From the NCBI RefSeq assembly GCF_036507355.1, contig NZ_AP027877.1: a stretch of DNA of 64,000 nucleotides; one strand, 5' to 3'. Shown here in pieces: positions 5,771 through 16,973 of this stretch. The position numbers and the translations under genes are program-made. Source of the DNA: Escherichia coli (GTDB taxonomy: Bacteria; Pseudomonadota; Gammaproteobacteria; Enterobacterales; Enterobacteriaceae). The notes below the pieces were generated by a model, which was not told the DNA's origin, made no database searches, and worked only from the letters and a program-made list of their open reading frames with translations. Position 1 is the first letter of the stretch; every line of letters begins with the position of its first letter.

Positions 5771-6025
5771 TTAATTTGATTTATTCGCATCCATCAGCGC
5801 TTTTAACTGCTCCGGCGTAAACGGTGGTTTGCGTCGGTGCAACATCGCATGGCAATTAGGGTACACAGGCAGCAAATCATTAACTGGATCCAGCTGGTAA
5901 TCCTCTTTAATGGCTGACAGCGGCACCAGGTGATGCACATGGATAAAGCCTTCAGCGATATCACCATAGATCTTCACCAGATCAACACCGCATATTCCGT
6001 ATGAACCATACGGAGATTTAACCAT
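5771..6025 (-). CDS. Short HNH-motif protein, possibly a C-terminal remnant of a larger HNH nuclease gene
   Basis: 84-aa translation contains HVHHLVP...N...NCHAMLH (HNH-like His/Asn/His spacing) but lacks a clear first CxxC pair; AT-rich; its start overlaps the start of the divergent HUH gene. Confidence 0.4.
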   Translation of the reverse strand: MVKSPYGSYGICGVDLVKIYGDIAEGFIHVHHLVPLSAIKEDYQLDPVNDLLPVYPNCHAMLHRRKPPFTPEQLKALMDANKSN

Positions 6026-6593
6026 GACCTACAAATACAACCCCTTCTGGCAGCAACGTATTCGTGAGACGGTGCGGCACGCACTGAATGTTCATCCCCG
6101 CCTGACGGCATTGCGGGTTGACCTGCGTCTCCCGGATGTACCGGCAGCAACGGACGCAGCTGTGATATCCCGCTTCATCAATGCCCTGAAAGCCCGAATC
6201 GACGCTTACCAGAAACGTAAGCATCGGGAAGGTAAACGCGTGCATCCCACAACCCTGCATTACGTCTGGGCCCGGGAGTTTGGGGAGTGCAAAGGTAAAA
6301 AACACTATCACCTGATGCTGCTGGTCAACCGGGATACCTGGTGTCGTGCCGGTGATTACCGCGCTCCGGAGTCTCTGGCCGGGATGATTAAACAGGCGTG
6401 GTGCAGTGCCCTGGGAGTGGATGTCGGGTGCCATGCCACGCTGGTGCATTTTCCGGCCTGGCCGGCGGTGTGGCTGGCGCGTAATGATGACACCGGCTTT
6501 CAGCAAGTGCTGGAACGTGCTGACTATCTGGCGAAGGAGTATACCAAAGCTCACTGCACCGGTGAGCGCAATTTTGGCTGTAGCCGGAGTTGA
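6024..6593 (+). CDS. YagK/YfjJ-like (inovirus Gp2-type) protein with HUH-like motif, probable rolling-circle Rep-type nuclease
   Basis: 189-aa ORF; KKHYHLMLLV resembles an HUH motif (His-hydrophobic-His-hydrophobics); resembles YfjJ/YagK proteins of CP4-type cryptic prophages from memory. Confidence 0.55.
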   Translation: MTYKYNPFWQQRIRETVRHALNVHPRLTALRVDLRLPDVPAATDAAVISRFINALKARIDAYQKRKHREGKRVHPTTLHYVWAREFGECKGKKHYHLMLLVNRDTWCRAGDYRAPESLAGMIKQAWCSALGVDVGCHATLVHFPAWPAVWLARNDDTGFQQVLERADYLAKEYTKAHCTGERNFGCSRS

Positions 6594-6846: not shown

Positions 6847-7254
6847 ATGACTATGTACGCAAAATCCTTTATCGCTCTTGATGGCAACGGACGTCTGACG
6901 GGCGCCCGTACTGCACAGGCCGCACCTTATGCTCACTACACCTGCCACTTGTGTGGCAGTGCACTCAGATACCATCCGCAATACGACACTGAACTTCCCT
7001 GGTTTGAACACACTGACGACAGGCTGACAGAGCACGGTCAACAGTGCCCTTATGTCAGGCCGGAGCGCAGAGAAATACAGTTGATTAAACGTCTGCAGCA
7101 ATTCGTACCGGATGCCTTACCCGTGGTGCGTAAAGCCAGCTGGCACTGCAGACAATGTCACCACGATTATTATGGGGAGCAGTACTGCACACACTGCCAG
7201 ACCGGAGGATTCAGTATTCCCCGGACAACTCAGGAGGAAATATGCGAATTCTGA
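6847..7254 (+). CDS. Cys-rich zinc-ribbon protein, paralog 1
   Basis: 135-aa ORF with CHLCG...PWFEH...WHCRQC...YCTHCQTG; same architecture as the next gene. Confidence 0.5.
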   Translation: MTMYAKSFIALDGNGRLTGARTAQAAPYAHYTCHLCGSALRYHPQYDTELPWFEHTDDRLTEHGQQCPYVRPERREIQLIKRLQQFVPDALPVVRKASWHCRQCHHDYYGEQYCTHCQTGGFSIPRTTQEEICEF

Positions 7255-7676
7255 ACTGTTATATGGCGAATGACAGCAAAGGCCATTTTGTTACGGCGAA
7301 AGAAGCTGCGAAGCACAACCGACAGGACGTTTTGTGCTGTGTGTCCTGTGGATGCCCGTTAACACTTCAGCGGGGCAATGACGGACAACCACCGTGGTTT
7401 GAACATGACCAGATGACTGTCGCTGAAAAAATCCTGCTGCGATGTACCTGGCTTGACCCGGCGGAGAAAGAGGCCCGTCGTTTGCATCTGCAGGGCATGA
7501 CGGTTCCGGATTATACGGTGAAGGTGAGAAAGTGGTTTTGTGTGATGTGTGACGAAGATTATGAGGGGGAAAAGTGCTGCCCACGCTGCGGTACCGGGGT
7601 ATACAGCAGGGCGTGGGGGCGGCAGGAGGTGCCGTCGGAAGATGCCAGGGCTGATAATCCGTTACAGAGGCTGTAA
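7242..7676 (+). CDS. Cys-rich zinc-ribbon protein, paralog 2
   Basis: Start ATG at 7242 preceded by GGAGG RBS and overlapping the last codons of paralog 1; CCVSCG...PWFEH...FCVMC...CCPRCGTG. Confidence 0.5.
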   Translation: MRILNCYMANDSKGHFVTAKEAAKHNRQDVLCCVSCGCPLTLQRGNDGQPPWFEHDQMTVAEKILLRCTWLDPAEKEARRLHLQGMTVPDYTVKVRKWFCVMCDEDYEGEKCCPRCGTGVYSRAWGRQEVPSEDARADNPLQRL

Positions 7677-8009
7677 TGGTTGCCTCCGGAGCAGTTTGCG
7701 GTGATGCCTTTCCCGGGAATGGATTGCCAGTGCGGGGACTGTGGAGCTTAATTCCGGTGTTGGTGGCCTTTCCGTTGATTTTATGCCAACAGCCCCCTGT
7801 GACTGACAGGCTGCCTCGTCATTCCATTCGTATCTCCAGTAACAGGGGGTTGTATTGTATTTTATTGTGCCGGTTCAGGTGTGCGTTTCCCGGCGCGTCT
7901 GCACCGGCTTAACCAAATTCAACAGGGATAAAATAGTGGTAAGCGTACAGCCTGAACCGTCTGGTCAGAATCTGACGAATTAGACAAAGTGGTGTCCACC
8001 AAATAAGTA

Positions 8010-8411
8010 GTGGGAACCAAAGTGTCAGATATGCAGAAAAATGTGACTCCCGGCAGGCGAAAAGGCTGCCCTAATTATCCTCCCGAATTTAAACAGCTGC
8101 TCGTTGCTGCCTCCTGTGAACCCGGGATATCCATCTCAAAACTTGCTCTTGAAAATGGCATTAACGCCAATCTGTTGTTCAAATGGCGACAACAATGGCG
8201 CGAGGGAAAGCTGCTATTACCTTCTTCAGAGAGCCCCCAGCTACTTCCTGTGACTCTCGATGCAGCTGCCGAACAGCCAGAATCGCTCGCAGAGGACCCG
8301 GAAACCCTCAGTATCAGCTGTGAGGTAACGTTCCGGCACGGGACGCTCCGCTTCAATGGCAATGTCAGCGAAAAGCTCCTGACTCTGCTGATACAGGAAC
8401 TGAAGCGATGA
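8010..8411 (+). CDS. IS66-family accessory protein (orfA / TnpA-like)
   Basis: 133-aa ORF with HTH-like N-terminus (ISKLALENGINANLLFKWRQQW), typical of IS66 orfA. Confidence 0.7.
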   Translation: MGTKVSDMQKNVTPGRRKGCPNYPPEFKQLLVAASCEPGISISKLALENGINANLLFKWRQQWREGKLLLPSSESPQLLPVTLDAAAEQPESLAEDPETLSISCEVTFRHGTLRFNGNVSEKLLTLLIQELKR

Positions 8412-8755
8412 TCCCGTTACCTTCCGGGACCAAAATTTGGCTGGTTGCCGGTATCACCGATATGAGAAATGGCTTCAACGGCCTGGCTGCGAAAGTACAA
8501 ACGGCGCTGAAAGACGATCCCATGTCCGGCCATGTTTTCATTTTCCGGGGCCGCAGCGGCAGTCAGGTTAAACTGCTGTGGTCCACCGGTGACGGACTGT
8601 GCCTCCTGACCAAACGGCTGGAGCGTGGGCGCTTCGCCTGGCCGTCAGCCCGTGATGGCAAAGTGTTCCTTACGCAGGCGCAGCTGGCGATGCTGCTGGA
8701 AGGTATCGACTGGCGACAGCCCAAGCGGCTGCTGACCTCCCTGACCATGCTGTAA
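8408..8755 (+). CDS. IS66-family orfB (TnpB-like)
   Basis: 115-aa ORF; MIPLPSGTKIWLVAGITDMRNGFNGLAA... is the IS66 Orf2 signature; start overlaps the orfA stop (ATGA). Confidence 0.75.
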   Translation: MIPLPSGTKIWLVAGITDMRNGFNGLAAKVQTALKDDPMSGHVFIFRGRSGSQVKLLWSTGDGLCLLTKRLERGRFAWPSARDGKVFLTQAQLAMLLEGIDWRQPKRLLTSLTML

Positions 8756-8804
8756 ATCTCTTTATCCTGGTTGTCACAGAATAAGCCCGGTAAAATACGG
8801 GCTT

Positions 8805-10190
8805 ATGAACGACATCTCTTCTGACGACATCTTCCTGCTAAAACAGCGCCTGGCCGAACAGGAAGCGCTGATCCACGCCCTGCAGGAAAAGCTGAGCAAC
8901 CGGGAGCGCGAAATAGACCATCTGCAGGCGCAGCTGGATAAACTCCGCCGGATGAACTTCGGCAGTCGTTCCGAAAAAGTCTCCCGCCGTATCGCACAAA
9001 TGGAAGCCGATCTGAACCGGCTTCAGAAAGAGAGCGATACGCTGACTGGTAGGGTGTATGACCCGGCAGTACAGCGTCCGTTGCGTCAGACCCGCACCCG
9101 TAAGCCGTTCCCTGAATCACTACCCCGTGACGAAAAGCGACTGTTGCCTGCGGCGCCGTGCTGCCCGAACTGCGGCGGTTCACTGAGCTATCTGGGCGAG
9201 GATACCGCCGAACAGCTGGAGTTGATGCGTAGCGCCTTCCGGGTTATCCGGACGGTACGGGAAAAACATGCCTGTACTCAGTGCGATGCCATCGTGCAGG
9301 CACCTGCACCTTCGCGGCCCATCGAGCGGGGTATCGCCGGACCGGGGCTGCTGGCCCGCGTGCTGACCTCGAAGTATGCAGAGCACACCCCGCTGTATTG
9401 CCAGTCAGAAATATACGGCCGGCAAGGTGTGGAGCTGAGCCGTTCACTGCTGTCGGGCTGGGTGGATGCATGCTGCCGGCTGCTGTCTCCGCTGGAAGAG
9501 GCGCTTCATGGCTATGTCATGACTGACGGCAAACTCCATGCCGATGATACCCCGGTCCAGGTACTGCTGCCGGGTAATAAGAAGACGAAGACCGGGCGGT
9601 TGTGGGCGTATGTTCGTGATGACCGCAATGCCGGGTCAGCGTTGGCACCTGCAGTGTGGTTCGCTTACAGCCCGGACAGAAAAGGCATCCATCCGCAGAC
9701 TCATCTTGCTTGCTTCAGCGGTGTGCTGCAAGCGGATGCGTACGCCGGGTTCAACGAGCTGTATCGCAATGGTGGGATAACGGAAGCTGCCTGCTGGGCT
9801 CATGCCCGCCGAAAGATCCACGATGTGCACGTCCGCATCCCGTCAGCACTGACGGAAGAAGCCCTAGAGCAGATCGGTCAGTTGTACGCCATAGAGGCGG
9901 ATATAAGGGGAATGCCGGCAGAGCAGCGGCTTGCTGAACGTCAGCGAAAAACGAAACCGCTGTTGAAATCCCTGGAAAGCTGGTTGCGTGAAAAGATGAA
10001 GACCCTGTTCTTCGGCTCTGGCCATGGTGGTGAGCGGGGAGCGCTACTGTACAGCCTGATCGGGACGTGCAAACTGAATGACGTGGATCCAGAAAGCTAC
10101 CTTCGCCATGTGCCTGGCGTCATAGCAGACTGGCCGGTCAACCGGGTCAGCGAACTGCTTCCGTGGCGCATAGCACTGCCAGCTGAATAA
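8805..10190 (+). CDS. IS66-family transposase (orfC / TnpC), probably carrying an internal in-frame deletion
   Basis: 461-aa ORF with leucine-zipper N-terminus, CxxC...CxxC zinc motif and DDE region; about 50 aa shorter than typical IS66 TnpC, with the conserved region before LFFGS.GGERGA apparently missing. Confidence 0.7.
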   Translation: MNDISSDDIFLLKQRLAEQEALIHALQEKLSNREREIDHLQAQLDKLRRMNFGSRSEKVSRRIAQMEADLNRLQKESDTLTGRVYDPAVQRPLRQTRTRKPFPESLPRDEKRLLPAAPCCPNCGGSLSYLGEDTAEQLELMRSAFRVIRTVREKHACTQCDAIVQAPAPSRPIERGIAGPGLLARVLTSKYAEHTPLYCQSEIYGRQGVELSRSLLSGWVDACCRLLSPLEEALHGYVMTDGKLHADDTPVQVLLPGNKKTKTGRLWAYVRDDRNAGSALAPAVWFAYSPDRKGIHPQTHLACFSGVLQADAYAGFNELYRNGGITEAACWAHARRKIHDVHVRIPSALTEEALEQIGQLYAIEADIRGMPAEQRLAERQRKTKPLLKSLESWLREKMKTLFFGSGHGGERGALLYSLIGTCKLNDVDPESYLRHVPGVIADWPVNRVSELLPWRIALPAE

Positions 10191-10428
10191 CACATCCCCG
10201 TCAATACGGCCCTCGCTGTACGCTTACTTTTGTTCGGACTGCTTATGGCCTTTTTCCACTGGTGTAGCAGGAAAGTTAACCGGCTGCCACCATGAGATGA
10301 CGTGTAAACCGTGCAGGCATGTTTTCACGTGGTGACGCTTTCATTGGGGGTCTACGCCGGAACCCCAATATTGTTCACATACATGAATTTGAAAAACTAA
10401 GCGATACTGCTGTCCGTACCTTATAAAC

Positions 10429-11787
10429 TTATTTCAACGCTTCCGGCAGCGTCACAATCCACAGTTCACTGTCAGACTCCGGTTTCTCCAGTGGCTTCAC
10501 TCTGAGGGTCGTTTCAACCTGCTTGTCGTCAAGCGTCAGCTTTCCTTCCGCGTTCACCCGATAATCCTTGAATGTCTTGCCCTCGACCGGATGTTGCATC
10601 GCCACCTTCACGCCAAAGTCGTTATCGTTCGCCACCGCCAGCGTTTTGCTGTCGATCAGCGCCAACCCTTCAGCCTTCTCCTGCTGCCAGCCCAAGGAGC
10701 GCAGATCAACAACCTGCGTTTTCTGCGCAAGGGTAATGCCGCGCTGTGACAGGGTTTTCTCATCATCAAACTCCGGATACTCACCCGGCTTGTCGAAGCC
10801 TGACAGGTCGCTCGCCTTATTGAGATCGACCTCGTAAATCAGGTTACGCATTCTGTTGTTTTTATCTCTTCCCTGTTCGATCAGCAGGATGTGCTGGTTA
10901 TCGAGCGCCACGATGTCTCCGATTTTAGCGTCGCTGTTTTTGCTGTAGGCCGCGCTGTCGATAGGATAACCGTACATCGCGGTTTTTCCGCTTGCCGGAT
11001 CGAAGCTCACCAGACGCGTAAACAGCGCCTTTTTCTTGCTCTTAGCGTCGATATCCAGCGTACTTTGCACGGCGACAATAATACGCCCGTCCGGCATACG
11101 GGTGAGGCCTTCAAAGCCGCGGTTCGCCTGACGCCATTTGAGGATATTTGGCAAACCGCCCGCAATCGCTTTTTCCCCTTCCGCCGCCTGCGGACCGTGG
11201 ATTGCCAGGATTTTCCCTTTACTGTCGATGTTAATCAGGAACGGGCCATACTCATCGCACAGCCAGTAACCTCCTTTACCATCCGGAGTGATCCCTTCCG
11301 TATCCAGCCCGCGATTATCCCCCTTCAGTCTATGTAACGTGTCGCTGAAGGCCACTTCATTGGTGGAGCCAATCACGTCGCTTGCCAGCGGCAGACCGTT
11401 GATCGCGCCTTTATCGTCATGCAGAGGACGGGGATCGATGGCCTCCGCTTTGCCGTTTTGTACACGAATCGTCATCAGCAGCGGCGCGAAATCTGGCGTA
11501 ACGAAAATTTTAGTTTCGTTTTTCCCCTCTTTCGGTGAATCCGCGTTCGGACCGCGATCGGTAATGGTTGCGAATGTCAGGGCATCGCCCTGTTTACCGG
11601 TGAACAGCAGGCCAGAACCTATCCCAACCGGAAGGCCGTTCGGGAATGCACTGGCAAATGCGCCGGCGTAGTTCACGTGCGTGCCTTCTGGAAAACTGAC
11701 GACATAGCGCTCAGCCGTAGGTTGTGCCGCCAGGGCAGAGAAAGAGAGCGTACAACCGATTAGCACGGGAATAATTTTTCTTTTCAT
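10429..11787 (-). CDS. Secreted phytase-like / esterase-like beta-propeller protein
   Basis: ORF 10429..11802(-); signal peptide MKRKIIPVLIGCTLSFSALAAQP; sequence resembles 'esterase-like activity of phytase' family proteins from memory; no catalytic motif verified. Confidence 0.45.
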   Translation of the reverse strand: MKRKIIPVLIGCTLSFSALAAQPTAERYVVSFPEGTHVNYAGAFASAFPNGLPVGIGSGLLFTGKQGDALTFATITDRGPNADSPKEGKNETKIFVTPDFAPLLMTIRVQNGKAEAIDPRPLHDDKGAINGLPLASDVIGSTNEVAFSDTLHRLKGDNRGLDTEGITPDGKGGYWLCDEYGPFLINIDSKGKILAIHGPQAAEGEKAIAGGLPNILKWRQANRGFEGLTRMPDGRIIVAVQSTLDIDAKSKKKALFTRLVSFDPASGKTAMYGYPIDSAAYSKNSDAKIGDIVALDNQHILLIEQGRDKNNRMRNLIYEVDLNKASDLSGFDKPGEYPEFDDEKTLSQRGITLAQKTQVVDLRSLGWQQEKAEGLALIDSKTLAVANDNDFGVKVAMQHPVEGKTFKDYRVNAEGKLTLDDKQVETTLRVKPLEKPESDSELWIVTLPEALK

Positions 11788-12059
11788 ATTGTTAGCATCC
11801 ATAAAGTGAAGATCACACTACACCATAAAGAAGAAACGAGTCAGGAAAATGACATCGAATGGCAACATGCGCGGGCCTGAGGCCAAAGAAATGTAAAACA
11901 CTGTTGTTATTTGTAACAACGGAAACATTTACGGAAATTATTTGTCTTTCTTCGTGATCAAAAATGCTGTGTCTTGTTGGATTGGAGTGATGAGGGCTGC
12001 GTTTAGGAAACGCCCTATATTGTACGGTTGCATTATCGCGGTAGGGGTAATGCACGTGT

Positions 12060-12200
12060 CAGTATGATGAGCTGACCACACTCACGTGGGTGGACTGGTA
12101 TAACAATCGACGATTGCTGGAAAGGCAGGGCCATATCCCACCGGCAGAAGCAGAAAAAGCTTATTATGCTTCCATCGGAAACGATGATCTGGCAGCCTGA
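12060..12200 (+). pseudogene. IS3-family transposase C-terminal remnant
   Basis: Translates to ...QYDELTTLTWVDWYNNRRLLERQGHIPPAEAEKAYYASIGNDDLAA*, the typical C-terminal tail of IS3-family OrfB; the upstream part of the gene is absent. Confidence 0.4.
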
Positions 12201-12298
12201 GTTCACAGATAAAACACTCTCCAGGAAACCCGGGGCGGTTCACTTAGCCGCGTGTCCATTATTGCTGGATAAGATCATAACGAGGTAATGACTCCAAC

Positions 12299-12802
12299 TT
12301 ATTGATAGTGTTTTATGTTCAGATAATGCCCGATGACTTTGTCATGCAGCTCCACCGATTTTGAGAACGACAGCGACTTCCGTCCCAGCCGTGCCAGGTG
12401 CTGCCTCAGATTCAGGTTATGCCGCTCAATTCGCTGCGTATATCGCTTGCTGATTACGTGCAGCTTTCCCTTCAGGCGGGATTCATACAGCGGCCAGCCA
12501 TCCGTCATCCATATCACCACGTCAAAGGGTGACAGCAGGCTCATAAGACGCCCCAGCGTCGCCATCGTGCGTTCACCGAATACGTGCGCAACAACCGTCT
12601 TCCGGAGCCTGTCATACGCGTAAAACAGCCAGCGCTGGCGCGATTTAGCCCCGACATAGCCCCACTGTTCGTCCATTTCCGCGCAGACGATGACGTCACT
12701 GCCCGGCTGTATGCGCGAGGTTACCGACTGCGGCCTGAGTTTTTTAAGTGACGTAAAATCGTGTTGAGGCCAACGCCCATAATGCGGGCTGTTGCCCGGC
12801 AT
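12299..12802 (-). CDS. insB: IS1 InsB (expressed as InsAB' by -1 frameshift)
   Basis: Translation ...[74 protein letters not shown]... matches IS1 InsB. Confidence 0.85.
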
Positions 12803-12996
12803 CCAACGCCATTCATGGCCATATCAATGATTTTCTGGTGCGTACCGGGTTGAGAAGCGGTGTAAGTGAACTGCAGTTGCCATGTTTTACGACAGTGAGA
12901 GCAGAGATAGCGCTGATGTCCGGCGGTGCTTTTGCCGTTACGCACCACCCCGTCAGTAGCTGAACAGGAGGGACAGCTGATAGAAACAGAAGCCAC
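12721..12996 (-). CDS. insA: IS1 InsA
   Basis: [43 protein letters not shown]... identical in character to IS1 InsA. Confidence 0.85.
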
Positions 12997-13065
12997 TGGA
13001 GCACCTCAAAAACACCATCATACACTAAATCAGTAAGTTGGCAGCATCACCGGCCTCGCATTTAA

Positions 13066-13911
13066 TTATTCATTTAAAGATTCAAGAAATGTCCAGCCTT
13101 TATGAGTAACATAATACATTTGTCCTTTTGCCCCTCTTTCAATCACAAAATCAAAGGATAACAGTTCGTTAAGTGCGCCCTCCCAACGGGCTACCTCTCT
13201 AGCCGAACTTCCACCAAAGGATTGATTTCCCGCTTGAATATCCGTGCCACCTAAATGCCTTATCACATAAATTGTTCCGCTATCATCGACACATGCCAAT
13301 TTCAGCAAACTGAGTGCATCGGCGGACAAATTACTTTCTGGCAAAGATTGACTTGTATTCGCATCAGGAGAATTGTTAATGGTAGATATAAGAGAAGACA
13401 AATAAGGGCTACTAGAAATAATTATCGAAAGTTGCCTACGGACTTTGTCTTTGAAATCAGATAAGTCATTAAAAGACTCTATCAATCCCTTTTGCATGCA
13501 CTCAATTTTGAACAATTTAAGAGACTCATATTGTTCTCTATCAAGGCTTTCAGGGGCAACAGGCTTTGAGGAAAAGTAAATCATTGCCGGTTTTCCCGCA
13601 TTCAAATGACGGTGAATTTCTTCGACTGTTCCGCTGGCCTCGTTCCCAGTCGGTGAGCCTAGACGAGTCCAAAACACACCGATTAATAAATCACAATCTA
13701 CTAATAATCTTTGATTAATCAACTCCTGAGGCCTAACTCCTAATTCGGGTGATGTATGAGTTTCCCATCCAATTGGTGTCAACATTACTTTTGAACGAGC
13801 TGAATTTATATCATTCCACTCATGGATCATTTCACGAATGACTTGTCTCTCTTCAGCGACATCACCAGGAGAAGCAATCATTACAGGGATAACAGTTGCT
13901 GTGTAAGCCAT
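13066..13911 (-). CDS. Hypothetical protein with N-terminal DUF4062-like (TIR/STIR-like) domain and uncharacterised C-terminal domain
   Basis: 281-aa AT-rich ORF with GGAGAG RBS; N-terminus VMIASPGDVAEERQVIREMI...CDLLIGVFWTRLGSPTG...SGTVEEIHRHLNAGKPAMIYFSS fits the DUF4062 pattern as I recall it; start lies 14 nt after the recombinase stop; IS1 ends 14 bp past its stop. Confidence 0.5.
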   Translation of the reverse strand: MAYTATVIPVMIASPGDVAEERQVIREMIHEWNDINSARSKVMLTPIGWETHTSPELGVRPQELINQRLLVDCDLLIGVFWTRLGSPTGNEASGTVEEIHRHLNAGKPAMIYFSSKPVAPESLDREQYESLKLFKIECMQKGLIESFNDLSDFKDKVRRQLSIIISSSPYLSSLISTINNSPDANTSQSLPESNLSADALSLLKLACVDDSGTIYVIRHLGGTDIQAGNQSFGGSSAREVARWEGALNELLSFDFVIERGAKGQMYYVTHKGWTFLESLNE

Positions 13912-13924
13912 AAACTCTCCATAT

Positions 13925-14485
13925 TCAATCGGTAATAGCTGCTACAGTCGCTCTTGAAACGCCATATTGACGCGCTAACGCACTGATACTCAAACCGCTA
14001 TTCTTTTTCTCTAAAATCTCTCTACGGGCTTCTGACGCGATTTTAGGAGGTCTGCCCAATTTCTTACCTTCGGCTTTTGCTCGTGATAGTCCCGCCTGAG
14101 TGCGCTCAATCAGCAGATCACGCTCCATCTCCGCAACCGCGGCGAGCATAGATAATAGCAACTTCCCAGCGGCAGAAGTGAGATCTGTGTTACCAAGCTG
14201 GTGGACAAGAACCTTGATATTACGGTCAGCCAGCGCCCTTACCGTTTGCAGGACGTCAATCGCATCACGCCCCAGACGATCAAGCTTCGCTACCACCAAC
14301 GTTTCACCATCGCGGATTTTATTGAGCATTTCAGAAAATGCTTTACGTTGCATTGCCGGAACCTTCCCGCTAACAACATCGGCAAACCAGTAATCAATTT
14401 GCCACCCAGCCTGCCCAAGCTCCAGCCGTTGGTTCTCAGTATCCTGCTGCGATGTCGAAACACGTCCGTAGCCAAAAGTTGCCAT
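13925..14485 (-). CDS. Small serine recombinase (resolvase/invertase family)
   Basis: ORF 13925..14554(-); true start likely MATFGYGRVSTSQQDTENQ (catalytic Ser motif GYxRVSTxxQ) with GGGGAG RBS; C-terminal HTH SISALARQYGVSRATV; about 186 aa. Confidence 0.75.
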   Translation of the reverse strand: MATFGYGRVSTSQQDTENQRLELGQAGWQIDYWFADVVSGKVPAMQRKAFSEMLNKIRDGETLVVAKLDRLGRDAIDVLQTVRALADRNIKVLVHQLGNTDLTSAAGKLLLSMLAAVAEMERDLLIERTQAGLSRAKAEGKKLGRPPKIASEARREILEKKNSGLSISALARQYGVSRATVAAITD

Positions 14486-14507
14486 TGTTATCTCCCCATC
14501 TGACCCC

Positions 14508-14604
14508 TGCCAGAAAACGAGGCCAACATTAGGATGGCCTGCCAGAAAAGCCAAGGCTATTTTTCCAACAGTGTGAAAGCGTGCGATTGGGAGGTGCCAG
14601 AAAA
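14508..14604. repeat. Three direct copies of TGCCAGAAAA upstream of the serine recombinase start; candidate res-like binding sites/operator
   Basis: TGCCAGAAAA at 14508-14517, 14540-14549 and 14595-14604 (spacings 32 and 55 bp), 23-120 bp upstream of the recombinase start codon. Confidence 0.4.
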
Positions 14605-15460
14605 CGGTCGATTGATGACACCATCAAACACTAACAGTGTGCCCCGGCAACGCGCGCCTGCAACGGTTGTCTCGGATGAGCAAAATCTTAGGGTTTTCTC
14701 AGCGACCCCTGACGCGCGGGCACGCACATGCTCACGGGGGCGCGGGCGAGCTATACAGTTGAGGGAGGGGCAACCATAAGCGTGCAATTTTTCAAGCCGG
14801 GGATTCAGCTATAGGCTAACGGTAGAATGCGGCTTGTAGAGGGTTGTGCGCACATACCCAGTACAATCGCATTACTCCACGCGCACAAACCCCGGAGAGC
14901 CGCTTGCGGTGGGGGTTTAAGAGGTACAATTTTTGGTTCGGGTCATAAAGGACTTTTGAGAGCTGACTTAGCTTATTTAAACTGCATTCGTCTTGGCTAT
15001 GGAGACACGAGGCAGCTCAAGTTTTGTTCAAAACTTTGCAATATTTTGGTTCGATCTCATGTTCTCGTGCTAAAGAAATCAGCACTCGATCAAATTTTCA
15101 TTTTTTTTCTGAAACATTGACATACAGCCTAAGCCTTAAGGCACGTAGGGTTGGTCGAAATTTCCCTTTGACAACCTCAATTTAACCTCAAAATCAACCC
15201 TTGTACTGCAAAGAATCCTAACTAGAATGCTGAACATGTAGGGGGGAATCTTATTAACACACCCTATATGTTGTGCTCATGTATAAATGATGGGCATAAA
15301 AAAACCGGAGTCACCTGCGTGAATCCGGTCTATGAAGCATGACCGCCATGAGTCTGCAAACTCATAACGATTGTTAGCCTCACTATCGTTTCTAACGGCT
15401 CGATTGTGCCCGGCTTGGTTGGTTATGTAAACAGTAAGATAAAATCAAAAGGAACGATCC

Positions 15461-16375
15461 ATGCTTATTCAGAAAAAGCGTATTCGAAATATTGATAATT
15501 ACATACCTAACTTTGATGGCCGTGATATCTACATTGCACATTCTTTGCCAGATGCGGGGAAAACGGACTCTATTGGTTTCTCAAGTCAAAGAGCTTTAGG
15601 TGAAGAAGTCCTCCCCAAGATTTTAGGGCCAATAACCAGATTCAATGCTAATGGCAAATCAGTACCTGACAAAACAGCACCTAAAGAAACTGCATACAGA
15701 CAAATTTCATGGACTAGAAAGCAATGGATCGGAGGGGGCGCAACTCAAGAAGTTACTGACACTCGTGAAATTGAGTATAAGCGCTACAAGAGAATCCTCA
15801 CCCCTCCACCAAGCATAGAGTTAAAGATTGTAGAGAATCTTCAAGGGGAGAAGTTGATCATCTCTCCAAAGCTAAGTTTGACAGCTAACAACAAAGAGTT
15901 AGTGGCTCACTGCATTAATCTTTTTTTAGAGCTTTTTGGGTTGTGCGAAACTGTTGACGACCAACTTAATACCATCGTTAAAAGTAAATCTATAAAACTA
16001 AACTGGAGCCTCCTGCCTCAGGGTCAACAGCCTTGGAGTACTATCGGTTCAAAAATCCTTTCAGCTATTAAGATCAGGGGAAAGGGCAATACCGCTGTTG
16101 TTGAAGGCAGACTTGAACTTATCAATAGTAAAAAACCAGATTTCGTAGCGGTTGGGCAAGCTGGGTTCCAAGGCTACGTGATATTTGGGTTCACAGGCCA
16201 AAACATTTACGTGCTAGAAAGCTCACAATGTAATAACGCAACTTATATACTTAACAATAATTGGCAGCAGTTATCCCAGCTAACTAAAGCCGAAATACTA
16301 GACGGAAACTTGCACCATGCCCGTGTCATCCACCGTGTAAACTGGGCAGCAGAAATACTTAAATACTTACCATAA
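15461..16375 (+). CDS. Hypothetical protein (304 aa), AT-rich orphan gene adjacent to leuX
   Basis: Uninterrupted 304-aa ORF with RBS AAAGGAA upstream; strongly AT-biased codon usage; no motif I can assign; ends ~510 bp from the tRNA 3' end. Confidence 0.5.
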   Translation: MLIQKKRIRNIDNYIPNFDGRDIYIAHSLPDAGKTDSIGFSSQRALGEEVLPKILGPITRFNANGKSVPDKTAPKETAYRQISWTRKQWIGGGATQEVTDTREIEYKRYKRILTPPPSIELKIVENLQGEKLIISPKLSLTANNKELVAHCINLFLELFGLCETVDDQLNTIVKSKSIKLNWSLLPQGQQPWSTIGSKILSAIKIRGKGNTAVVEGRLELINSKKPDFVAVGQAGFQGYVIFGFTGQNIYVLESSQCNNATYILNNNWQQLSQLTKAEILDGNLHHARVIHRVNWAAEILKYLP

Positions 16376-16888
16376 AGCGCCGGACGCGCGGGAATGAACC
16401 CCCGCGCACTTTCAAACATACCGCAATAGAATCCATAAAGCCCCGTTGGTGGTAAGACAACAAGCGGAGCCTCTGGCGACTACATCACAGTTATGTCAGT
16501 TAGTGAGGCTTATCAGGATGACCATGTACCCAAGGGGAGCGAGGCCGAACCGCTGGCAGAGCTTGCATATGGTCTGCAAGTACCGTGACCACCATAAACC
16601 TGTTTATCCCCTGCGGCGTCTCGCGACAGCGGCAGAACGGGGGCATCGGGCTAAAATGCGCTTCACTAAAAGTTTTTGGGATTGTTTAGAGACAGTGGCT
16701 ACGTCATAGCTTTCAAGTTGAGTCAGTACGTGTTTGACGCTTGGAACTACACGCCGCTATGAGTTAACATCCCAATTACCACTATCAACCACAGCGGCTT
16801 TTTCAAGGGACATAACAGAGCATTTCTTACAGGCAAAAGAGACAGATTTTATTGTCTAACTACCTGTATTGTAAGGAATTTAGTGACT

Positions 16889-16973
16889 TGGTGCCGAAGG
16901 CCGGACTCGAACCGGCACGTATTTCTACGGTTGATTTTGAATCAACTGCGTCTACCGATTTCGCCACTTCGGC
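16889..16973 (-). tRNA. leuX: tRNA-Leu (CAA anticodon)
   Basis: Reverse complement reads GCCGAAGTGGCGAAATCGGTAGACGCAGTTGATTCAAAATCAACCGTAGAAATACGTGCCGGTTCGAGTCCGGCCTTCGGCACCA: 85 nt, long variable arm, CAA anticodon loop, 3' CCA. Confidence 0.9.

Follow-up and report, generated by a model that had tools for sequence, protein, structure and literature searches.

At positions 7939-10227 of the window (the whole 64,000-nucleotide stretch of Escherichia coli DNA that was analysed) lies a 2289-bp IS66-family element with a 461-aa transposase, TnpC. The locus raised two questions: whether this transposase is a native form or the product of a damaged copy of a known element, and whether an element of this kind could still move.

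Identity of the element and the gap in tnpC

The element has the gene layout of the IS66 family, with consecutive tnpA, tnpB and tnpC genes on the same strand (+), all three of which were identified by Pfam and NCBIfam matches. The tnpA gene (8031-8411) encodes an intact 126-aa IS66 accessory protein (HTH_Tnp_1; NF047595, 94.6 bits) and overlaps by ATGA with tnpB (8408-8755), which encodes an intact 115-aa IS66 Orf2-like accessory protein (PF05717 (TnpB_IS66), E=1e-38; NF033819). Their products are annotated as WP_001171523.1 and WP_000612591.1, respectively, in the identical copy of Nissle 1917, and also in a full-length plasmid copy (tnpA) and in full-length ISEc8 (tnpB). The third gene, tnpC (8805-10190), encodes the DDE transposase, which matched LZ_Tnp_IS66, zf-IS66, DDE_Tnp_IS66 and DDE_Tnp_IS66_C in Pfam. 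IS66-family ends start with GTAA, as does GTAAGCGTACAGC, which was found at both ends of the element, at 7939-7951 (+) and 10215-10227 (-), its sole two occurrences within the window. These 13 nucleotides open the left terminal repeat, IRL (7939-7960, +), as an exact inverted repeat of the right end, and the repeats stretch to 22 nt at 82% complementarity with IRR (10206-10227, +), which was placed by its terminal repeat match and by comparison with full-length copies. The IS66-family layout and terminal repeats that a first-pass annotation had read from the sequence were thereby borne out.

Comparison with annotated "ISEc8 family" copies identified the element as ISEc8 with a single in-frame 153-bp deletion in tnpC. 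Two full-length copies, one from a plasmid (L003) and one from the chromosome of the O157-type strain ATCC 43889 (L004), are both 2442 bp in length and have the same IRL as the window element. Apart from the 153-bp gap, the window element differs from the plasmid copy by 2 substitutions and from the chromosomal copy by 14 over 2289 aligned bases, such that identity outside the gap is 99.4-99.9%. When the last 528 bp of the element were used as a query, copies labelled "IS66-like element ISEc8 family transposase" gave two-piece matches covering 681 bp. Being in frame, the gap costs the 512-aa TnpC 51 residues, 402-452 (SRHSELAKAFAYALNQWPALTYYANDGWVEIDNNIAENALRAVSLGRKNFL), which directly precede FFGSGHGGERGA in the alignment to full-length ISEc8. 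The suspicion that a conserved block was missing before this motif was therefore correct, and 461 aa is not the length of the native TnpC, which has 512 aa.

The deletion junction lies at 10003|10004 (feature 10003-10008, +), where one CCTGT remains at 10004-10008. In full-length ISEc8 this 5-bp sequence occurs as a direct repeat on either side of the deleted segment, with the result that the position of the gap can slide by 5 bp. This junction was identified in 2218 of 5426 complete E. coli genomes (~41%), at 2407 places, and therefore is neither a chance occurrence nor an assembly artefact. Many of these genomes, Nissle 1917 and ST131 strains among them, have a copy with 100% identity to the window element over all 2289 bp.

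ISEc8, which is found in E. coli O157:H7 and on many plasmids, thus has its ends and its TnpA and TnpB proteins in common with the window element, from which 51 codons of tnpC are missing. The tnpA-tnpB-tnpC layout and the leucine-zipper, zinc-finger and DDE domains of TnpC are also shared with IS679 and other IS66-family elements; relative to IS679-like members, the window element is a defective derivative and not a separate member of the family. Work on IS679 by Han et al. in 2001 reportedly found that transposition depends on all three genes and that the ends begin with GTAA.

Conservation and predicted role of the lost TnpC block

The effect of the deletion was apparent in the profile matches of the 461-aa protein. 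Its match to DDE_Tnp_IS66 ended at profile position 222 of 284, and the score against the NCBIfam IS66 profile was 354 bits, versus 451 bits for full-length TnpC, with the best stretch ending at position 294 of 387. To describe conservation across the family we aligned 105 diverse TnpC representatives, which are 33-51% identical to ISEc8 TnpC. Positions conserved in at least 97% of these proteins include D247, D311, C330, H333, R335, R336, E364, R379, Y413, E438 and N450 (512-aa numbering is used throughout). The lost block had a mean conservation of 0.48, compared to 0.37 for the whole of TnpC, and contains the near-invariant positions Y413, N434, E438, G447, R448 and N450. The most conserved 51-residue window of the entire protein, residues 409-459 (mean identity 0.52), mostly overlaps the lost residues.

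Searches of the PDB with the TnpC protein and with the family profile gave no sequence match, and a search of the literature for the DDE assignment of IS66 found no usable open paper; a paper on the beta-clamp had no bearing on the lost block. Of the structure searches, the one by fold was the only informative one. An AlphaFold2 model of full-length ISEc8 TnpC was confident (pLDDT 93, pTM 0.83). The modelled protein has an RNase H-like order of elements, with a first strand (243-255) carrying D247, two further strands and a helix, then a fourth strand (306-310) with D311 directly after it, a second helix, a fifth strand (325-328) and a helix that opens with the CWAH motif. These are followed by an all-alpha insert (helices within 348-426) and then by a helix (435-448) bearing E438.

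The closest solved fold to the full-length TnpC model was that of the IS256-family ISCth4 transposase (PDB 6xg8, 6xgx; Foldseek E 5.5e-7, probability 1.00). The DDE triad of ISCth4 is D175, D241 and E348, its CxxH motif is 21 residues past the second Asp, and its Glu helix comes after an insertion domain that is alpha-helical (PMC7780238). The arrangement in ISEc8 TnpC is alike, with a spacing of 64 residues between the two Asp residues, CWAH 19 residues past D311, an alpha insert and then E438, although ISCth4 belongs to another IS family, has a single gene and different ends, and has no detected sequence similarity to TnpC. Based on this fold analogy and on motif position, E438 is most likely the catalytic Glu, the third DDE residue. 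E364 is also near-invariant and is a competing candidate for the catalytic Glu.

The 461-aa TnpC retains D247, D311 and CWAH, and the set of D, D, CWAH and E is incomplete in it as the block with E438 has been deleted. Because the deletion removes the end of the all-alpha insert along with the helix bearing E438, the protein is predicted to be catalytically dead; it would almost certainly be unable to catalyse transposition, and the window element is accordingly predicted to be non-autonomous.

Flanks, distribution and a second copy in yehR

Where a target duplication is visible, ISEc8 makes one of 8 bp, whereas the window copy has none, as the first-pass annotation had noted. The 8-mer to its left, AAATAGTG (7931-7938), is in non-coding DNA of an island module with a Gp2-like gene and two zinc-ribbon genes, and the right flank (10228-10307, +), which begins with TTTTGTTC, is what remains of the 3' part of a DUF6404 family gene cut by the IS. 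In IS-free genomes (L018, L019) AAATAGTG is followed by TAAATAACCGAAG and then by unrelated DNA that carries ilvN', a DeoR regulator, rbsK and fucP. On the right side, intact plasmid DUF6404 alleles (~91% identical) read GAGTGGTTTTTTGTTCGGACTGC across the end point of the IS; the remnant in the window also has an internal stop. The ISEc8 copy therefore joins two unrelated DNA segments and the locus is a rearrangement point, a proposal made earlier from the sequence that holds upon comparison with these genomes and alleles. The left junction was present in 1923 complete genomes. Recombination between two simple insertions would be expected to leave two reciprocal junctions, one in which IRR is followed by AAATAGTG and its continuation, and one in which the 5' part of DUF6404 with TTTTGTTC is followed by IRL; neither was found in the 5426 complete genomes.

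In the window, the element is set in a short island associated with leuX. Its genes run from a fimB-like recombinase through nanC, nanM, nanS, the Gp2-like gene and the two zinc-ribbon genes to the IS, and on through the DUF6404 remnant, a phytase-like gene and a resolvase to tRNA-Leu(CAA) (16889-16973), after which core genes resume. The right junction of the element also occurs in two O145:H28 genomes, there with a full-length, frameshifted ISEc8 whose left end is cut by another IS66-family element. Because this full-length copy shares the right junction, the insertion of ISEc8 into the DUF6404 gene probably predates the 153-bp deletion. Gene conversion could also have restored the full-length copy in the O145:H28 genomes.

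Three right-flank contexts cover nearly all of the 2407 places of the deleted element: the canonical DUF6404 remnant (2165 genomes), an IS110-family remnant (124 genomes; adjacent to a pheV island integrase in KE47, the only genome looked at for this context) and yehR (82 genomes). Full-length ISEc8, by comparison, occupies up to 19 places in a single genome. The deleted copies are nearly identical, being only a few positions off the window copy (12 genome copies, or 42 when metagenome contigs are included). Among the 42 complete deleted copies, the tnpC variants seen at least twice comprised 8 non-synonymous and 4 synonymous changes, where neutrality would predict ~3:1; this variation is too sparse, and too mixed with recombined polymorphism, to bear on selection. 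The deleted TnpC is WP_000998019.1, named "IS66 family transposase", which PGAP carries without a pseudogene flag, and the exact 461-aa protein is listed in 11152 index blocks.

Beyond the complete genomes, the deleted allele was found in 61 plasmid records of PLSDB. In the seven plasmids fetched, the copies look like passenger pieces and not like independent IS66 transpositions: the phytase-like gene was on the canonical right side in all seven, and IS1 was annotated just upstream in five. A metagenome scan for the deletion junction identified 120 contigs, most of which had canonical flanks, and no new matching 8-bp pair was found among them. Mixed flank combinations on the metagenome contigs may represent chimeric assemblies across IS repeats, and these contigs were set aside as evidence. 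The scan of species-representative genomes gave one match, on a contig of a MAG labelled uncultured Ruminococcaceae bacterium, which we take to be mis-binned.

The earlier view that the element is probably immobile was not supported in that form. Its ends, tnpA and tnpB are intact, and in the O103 strain RM8385 a second 2289-bp deleted copy interrupts yehR with GAACGGCA on both sides, a perfect 8-bp duplication. Excising the IS together with one of its two flanking 8-mers from yehR gives an intact ORF for the YehR lipoprotein. In this one genome, where the two were compared, the yehR copy is identical to the canonical copy, including private SNPs at element positions 358 and 1298. The chromosomal full-length ISEc8 of ATCC 43889 has AGTAGCTC on both sides, which confirms an 8-bp duplication for these ends. 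The ends assigned to the window element thus stand, the full-length and the deleted yehR copies each having a perfect 8-bp duplication at the same ends.

Among the matches listed for the yehR junction were O26:H11, O103 RM8385 and O111:H11 strains, which we take to be one related group. The O26 strain 11368 is reported to carry 9 (+4 partial) ISEc8 copies (PMC3893438 Table S4). The insertion into yehR was the only clear transposition event of the deleted element that we found, and is best explained by a single transposition in which TnpC was supplied by intact copies. [quoted passage not shown] would consequently be a better description of the deleted element than "immobile". It resembles trans-mobilised internal-deletion derivatives of other transposons in having intact ends and a disabled transposase gene, and in that movement was seen only in a lineage with intact copies, from which we infer trans-mobilisation; unlike such derivatives, it retains most of its length, including a long open reading frame. 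To our knowledge, there is little direct experimental support for the trans-mobilisation of IS66-family ends.

Proposed history and alternative explanations

The account that we favor, and in which we have high confidence as a whole, is that of an ISEc8 made defective by internal deletion, situated at an old rearrangement joint and mobilisable in trans. In this account, ISEc8 would first have inserted into the DUF6404 gene, and 153 bp of tnpC would then have been lost between two CCTGT repeats, which fits a slipped-strand or microhomology-mediated deletion. After the insertion, the DNA to the left would also have been replaced, through an adjacent deletion mediated by the IS or through two ISEc8 copies recombining with each other; such a replacement would have erased the target duplication and joined the segment with the DUF6404 remnant and phytase-like gene to the Gp2-like/zinc-ribbon module. 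The joint would then have been inherited, and spread with genomic islands, to reach ~40% of sequenced E. coli. In the presence of intact ISEc8 copies as a source of TnpC in trans, it would still be possible for the deleted element to transpose and generate an 8-bp duplication, as is proposed for yehR.

A very different interpretation is that the 461-aa TnpC is a natural, short and active transposase, and that the element moved into yehR as an autonomous IS. The intact frame, the extreme commonness of the exact protein in the index, the lack of a pseudogene flag and the existence of one insertion with a target duplication are all consistent with such a transposase. We nevertheless consider it extremely improbable, as the lost block holds near-invariant residues including E438, a 5-bp repeat lies on either side of the gap, as is typical of accidental deletion, and the near-identity of the copies (both in the set of 12 and in that of 42) suggests that the deletion is young and does not define an old lineage. 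In addition, nearly all of the roughly 2400 places fall in three right-flank contexts, far fewer than for full-length ISEc8 with its up to 19 places per genome, and the lineage in which the one transposition took place has many intact ISEc8 copies.

The yehR copy could also be accounted for if the element were truly immobile and a full-length ISEc8 in yehR had later been converted by recombination with the canonical deleted copy. Both copies are in one genome and are identical, IS copies do recombine, many metagenome contigs have mixed flank combinations, and the O145:H28 full-length copy at the canonical right junction indicates that both alleles can occupy one site. However, the conversion tract would have to span at least element positions 358 to 2066 with no helper-type SNP left, and no full-length yehR insertion was seen, an observation of little weight given that the E-value cut-off of the search would drop two-piece matches. 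We judge such a conversion to be unlikely and rate it below trans-mobilisation as the origin of the yehR copy.

A further idea concerns the persistence of the protein rather than the movement of the element. The 461-aa TnpC keeps the leucine-zipper, the zinc-finger and most of the catalytic-domain surfaces and is without the Glu helix, and it might persist in ~40% of E. coli by dampening ISEc8 transposition, either as a dominant-negative partner or as a competitor for end binding. The Inh protein of Tn5 and the KP form of the P element would be the analogues of such a host-fixed, truncated-transposase inhibitor. We regard this role as very doubtful.

On the reading of a defective, trans-mobilisable ISEc8, the element is an ordinary and widespread defective form of a catalogued IS, with nothing mechanistically new. 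This has practical consequences for the reading of E. coli genomes, as WP_000998019.1, which ~41% of complete genomes encode (those of Nissle 1917 and ST131 among them), is to be regarded as the product of a defective ISEc8 allele rather than as an active transposase. For strain typing, stable markers of island history and lineage are provided by the deletion junction and by its three flank contexts, namely the DUF6404 remnant, the IS110 remnant and yehR, with the yehR insertion marking the O26:H11 group. For the family, the element provides a natural example suggesting that IS66-family ends may be mobilised in trans, and leaves the current understanding of the family unchanged.

Genes flanking the deleted ISEc8 in the window

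To the left of the deleted ISEc8, two neighbouring, overlapping genes (window 6847-7676) each encode a product with DUF7828 and Zn_ribbon_11 domains and are apparently a tandem pair. Upstream of this pair is a YagK/YfjJ (inovirus Gp2-like) gene (6024-6593). On the other side, the region from the phytase-like gene to tRNA-Leu(CAA) (16889-16973, minus strand) contains genes for a DUF4062 protein (13066-13911) and a serine resolvase (13925-14554), as well as a 304-residue open reading frame without a Pfam match (15461-16375). No tyrosine integrase adjoining tRNA-Leu(CAA) was found in window 12000-16900. In E. coli Nissle 1917, which has an identical deleted copy, the phytase-like gene is followed by the fec operon, whereas in the window strain no fec operon follows this gene.

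Interrupted and frameshifted ISEc8 copies

The deleted ISEc8 of strain WP7-S18-ESBL-09 is interrupted, after the tnpC stop codon and before the right inverted repeat, by an IS3-family element that has a programmed frameshift, and this copy is thereby lengthened to 3603 bp. The ISEc8 of O145:H28 strain RM12761 (L029, 3877-6304) is full-length and frameshifted and has the same right junction as the deleted element. The 15 bp at the start of this copy, which include the left repeat, are absent, and a different, second IS66-family element lies immediately upstream in reverse orientation.

The deletion junction in plasmids and metagenomes

The deletion junction in tnpC was present in 61 PLSDB records, seven of which were inspected (L022-L028). 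The deleted-tnpC region and, next to it, the phytase-like gene (together corresponding to approximately window 9000-11800) occurred repeatedly in plasmids typed as IncFIB/IncHI1B, from E. coli, E. fergusonii, E. albertii, and Salmonella hosts. Based on an annotated IS1 copy being immediately upstream in five of the seven inspected plasmids, and one following the phytase-like gene in four, the plasmid segment looks like an IS1-bounded piece taken from the chromosomal island. The PLSDB gene table has no entry for tnpC itself.

Several metagenome contigs, including L116, L049, and L091, paired the deletion junction with the flanks of other ISEc8 copies; in L116, the right flank was that of L003, a full-length plasmid copy. 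These mixed-flank contigs either reflect genuine recombination among IS copies or are chimeric assemblies.

An alternative right flank

An IS110-family transposase remnant, and not the DUF6404 remnant, adjoins the deleted ISEc8 at its right end in 124 of 5426 complete E. coli genomes. In E. coli KE47, the only one of the 124 to be inspected, the left flank is canonical, and the IS110-family remnant is followed by a tyrosine integrase and tRNA-Phe. Based on these alternative remnants at its right end, the deleted ISEc8 links different partners in different islands.
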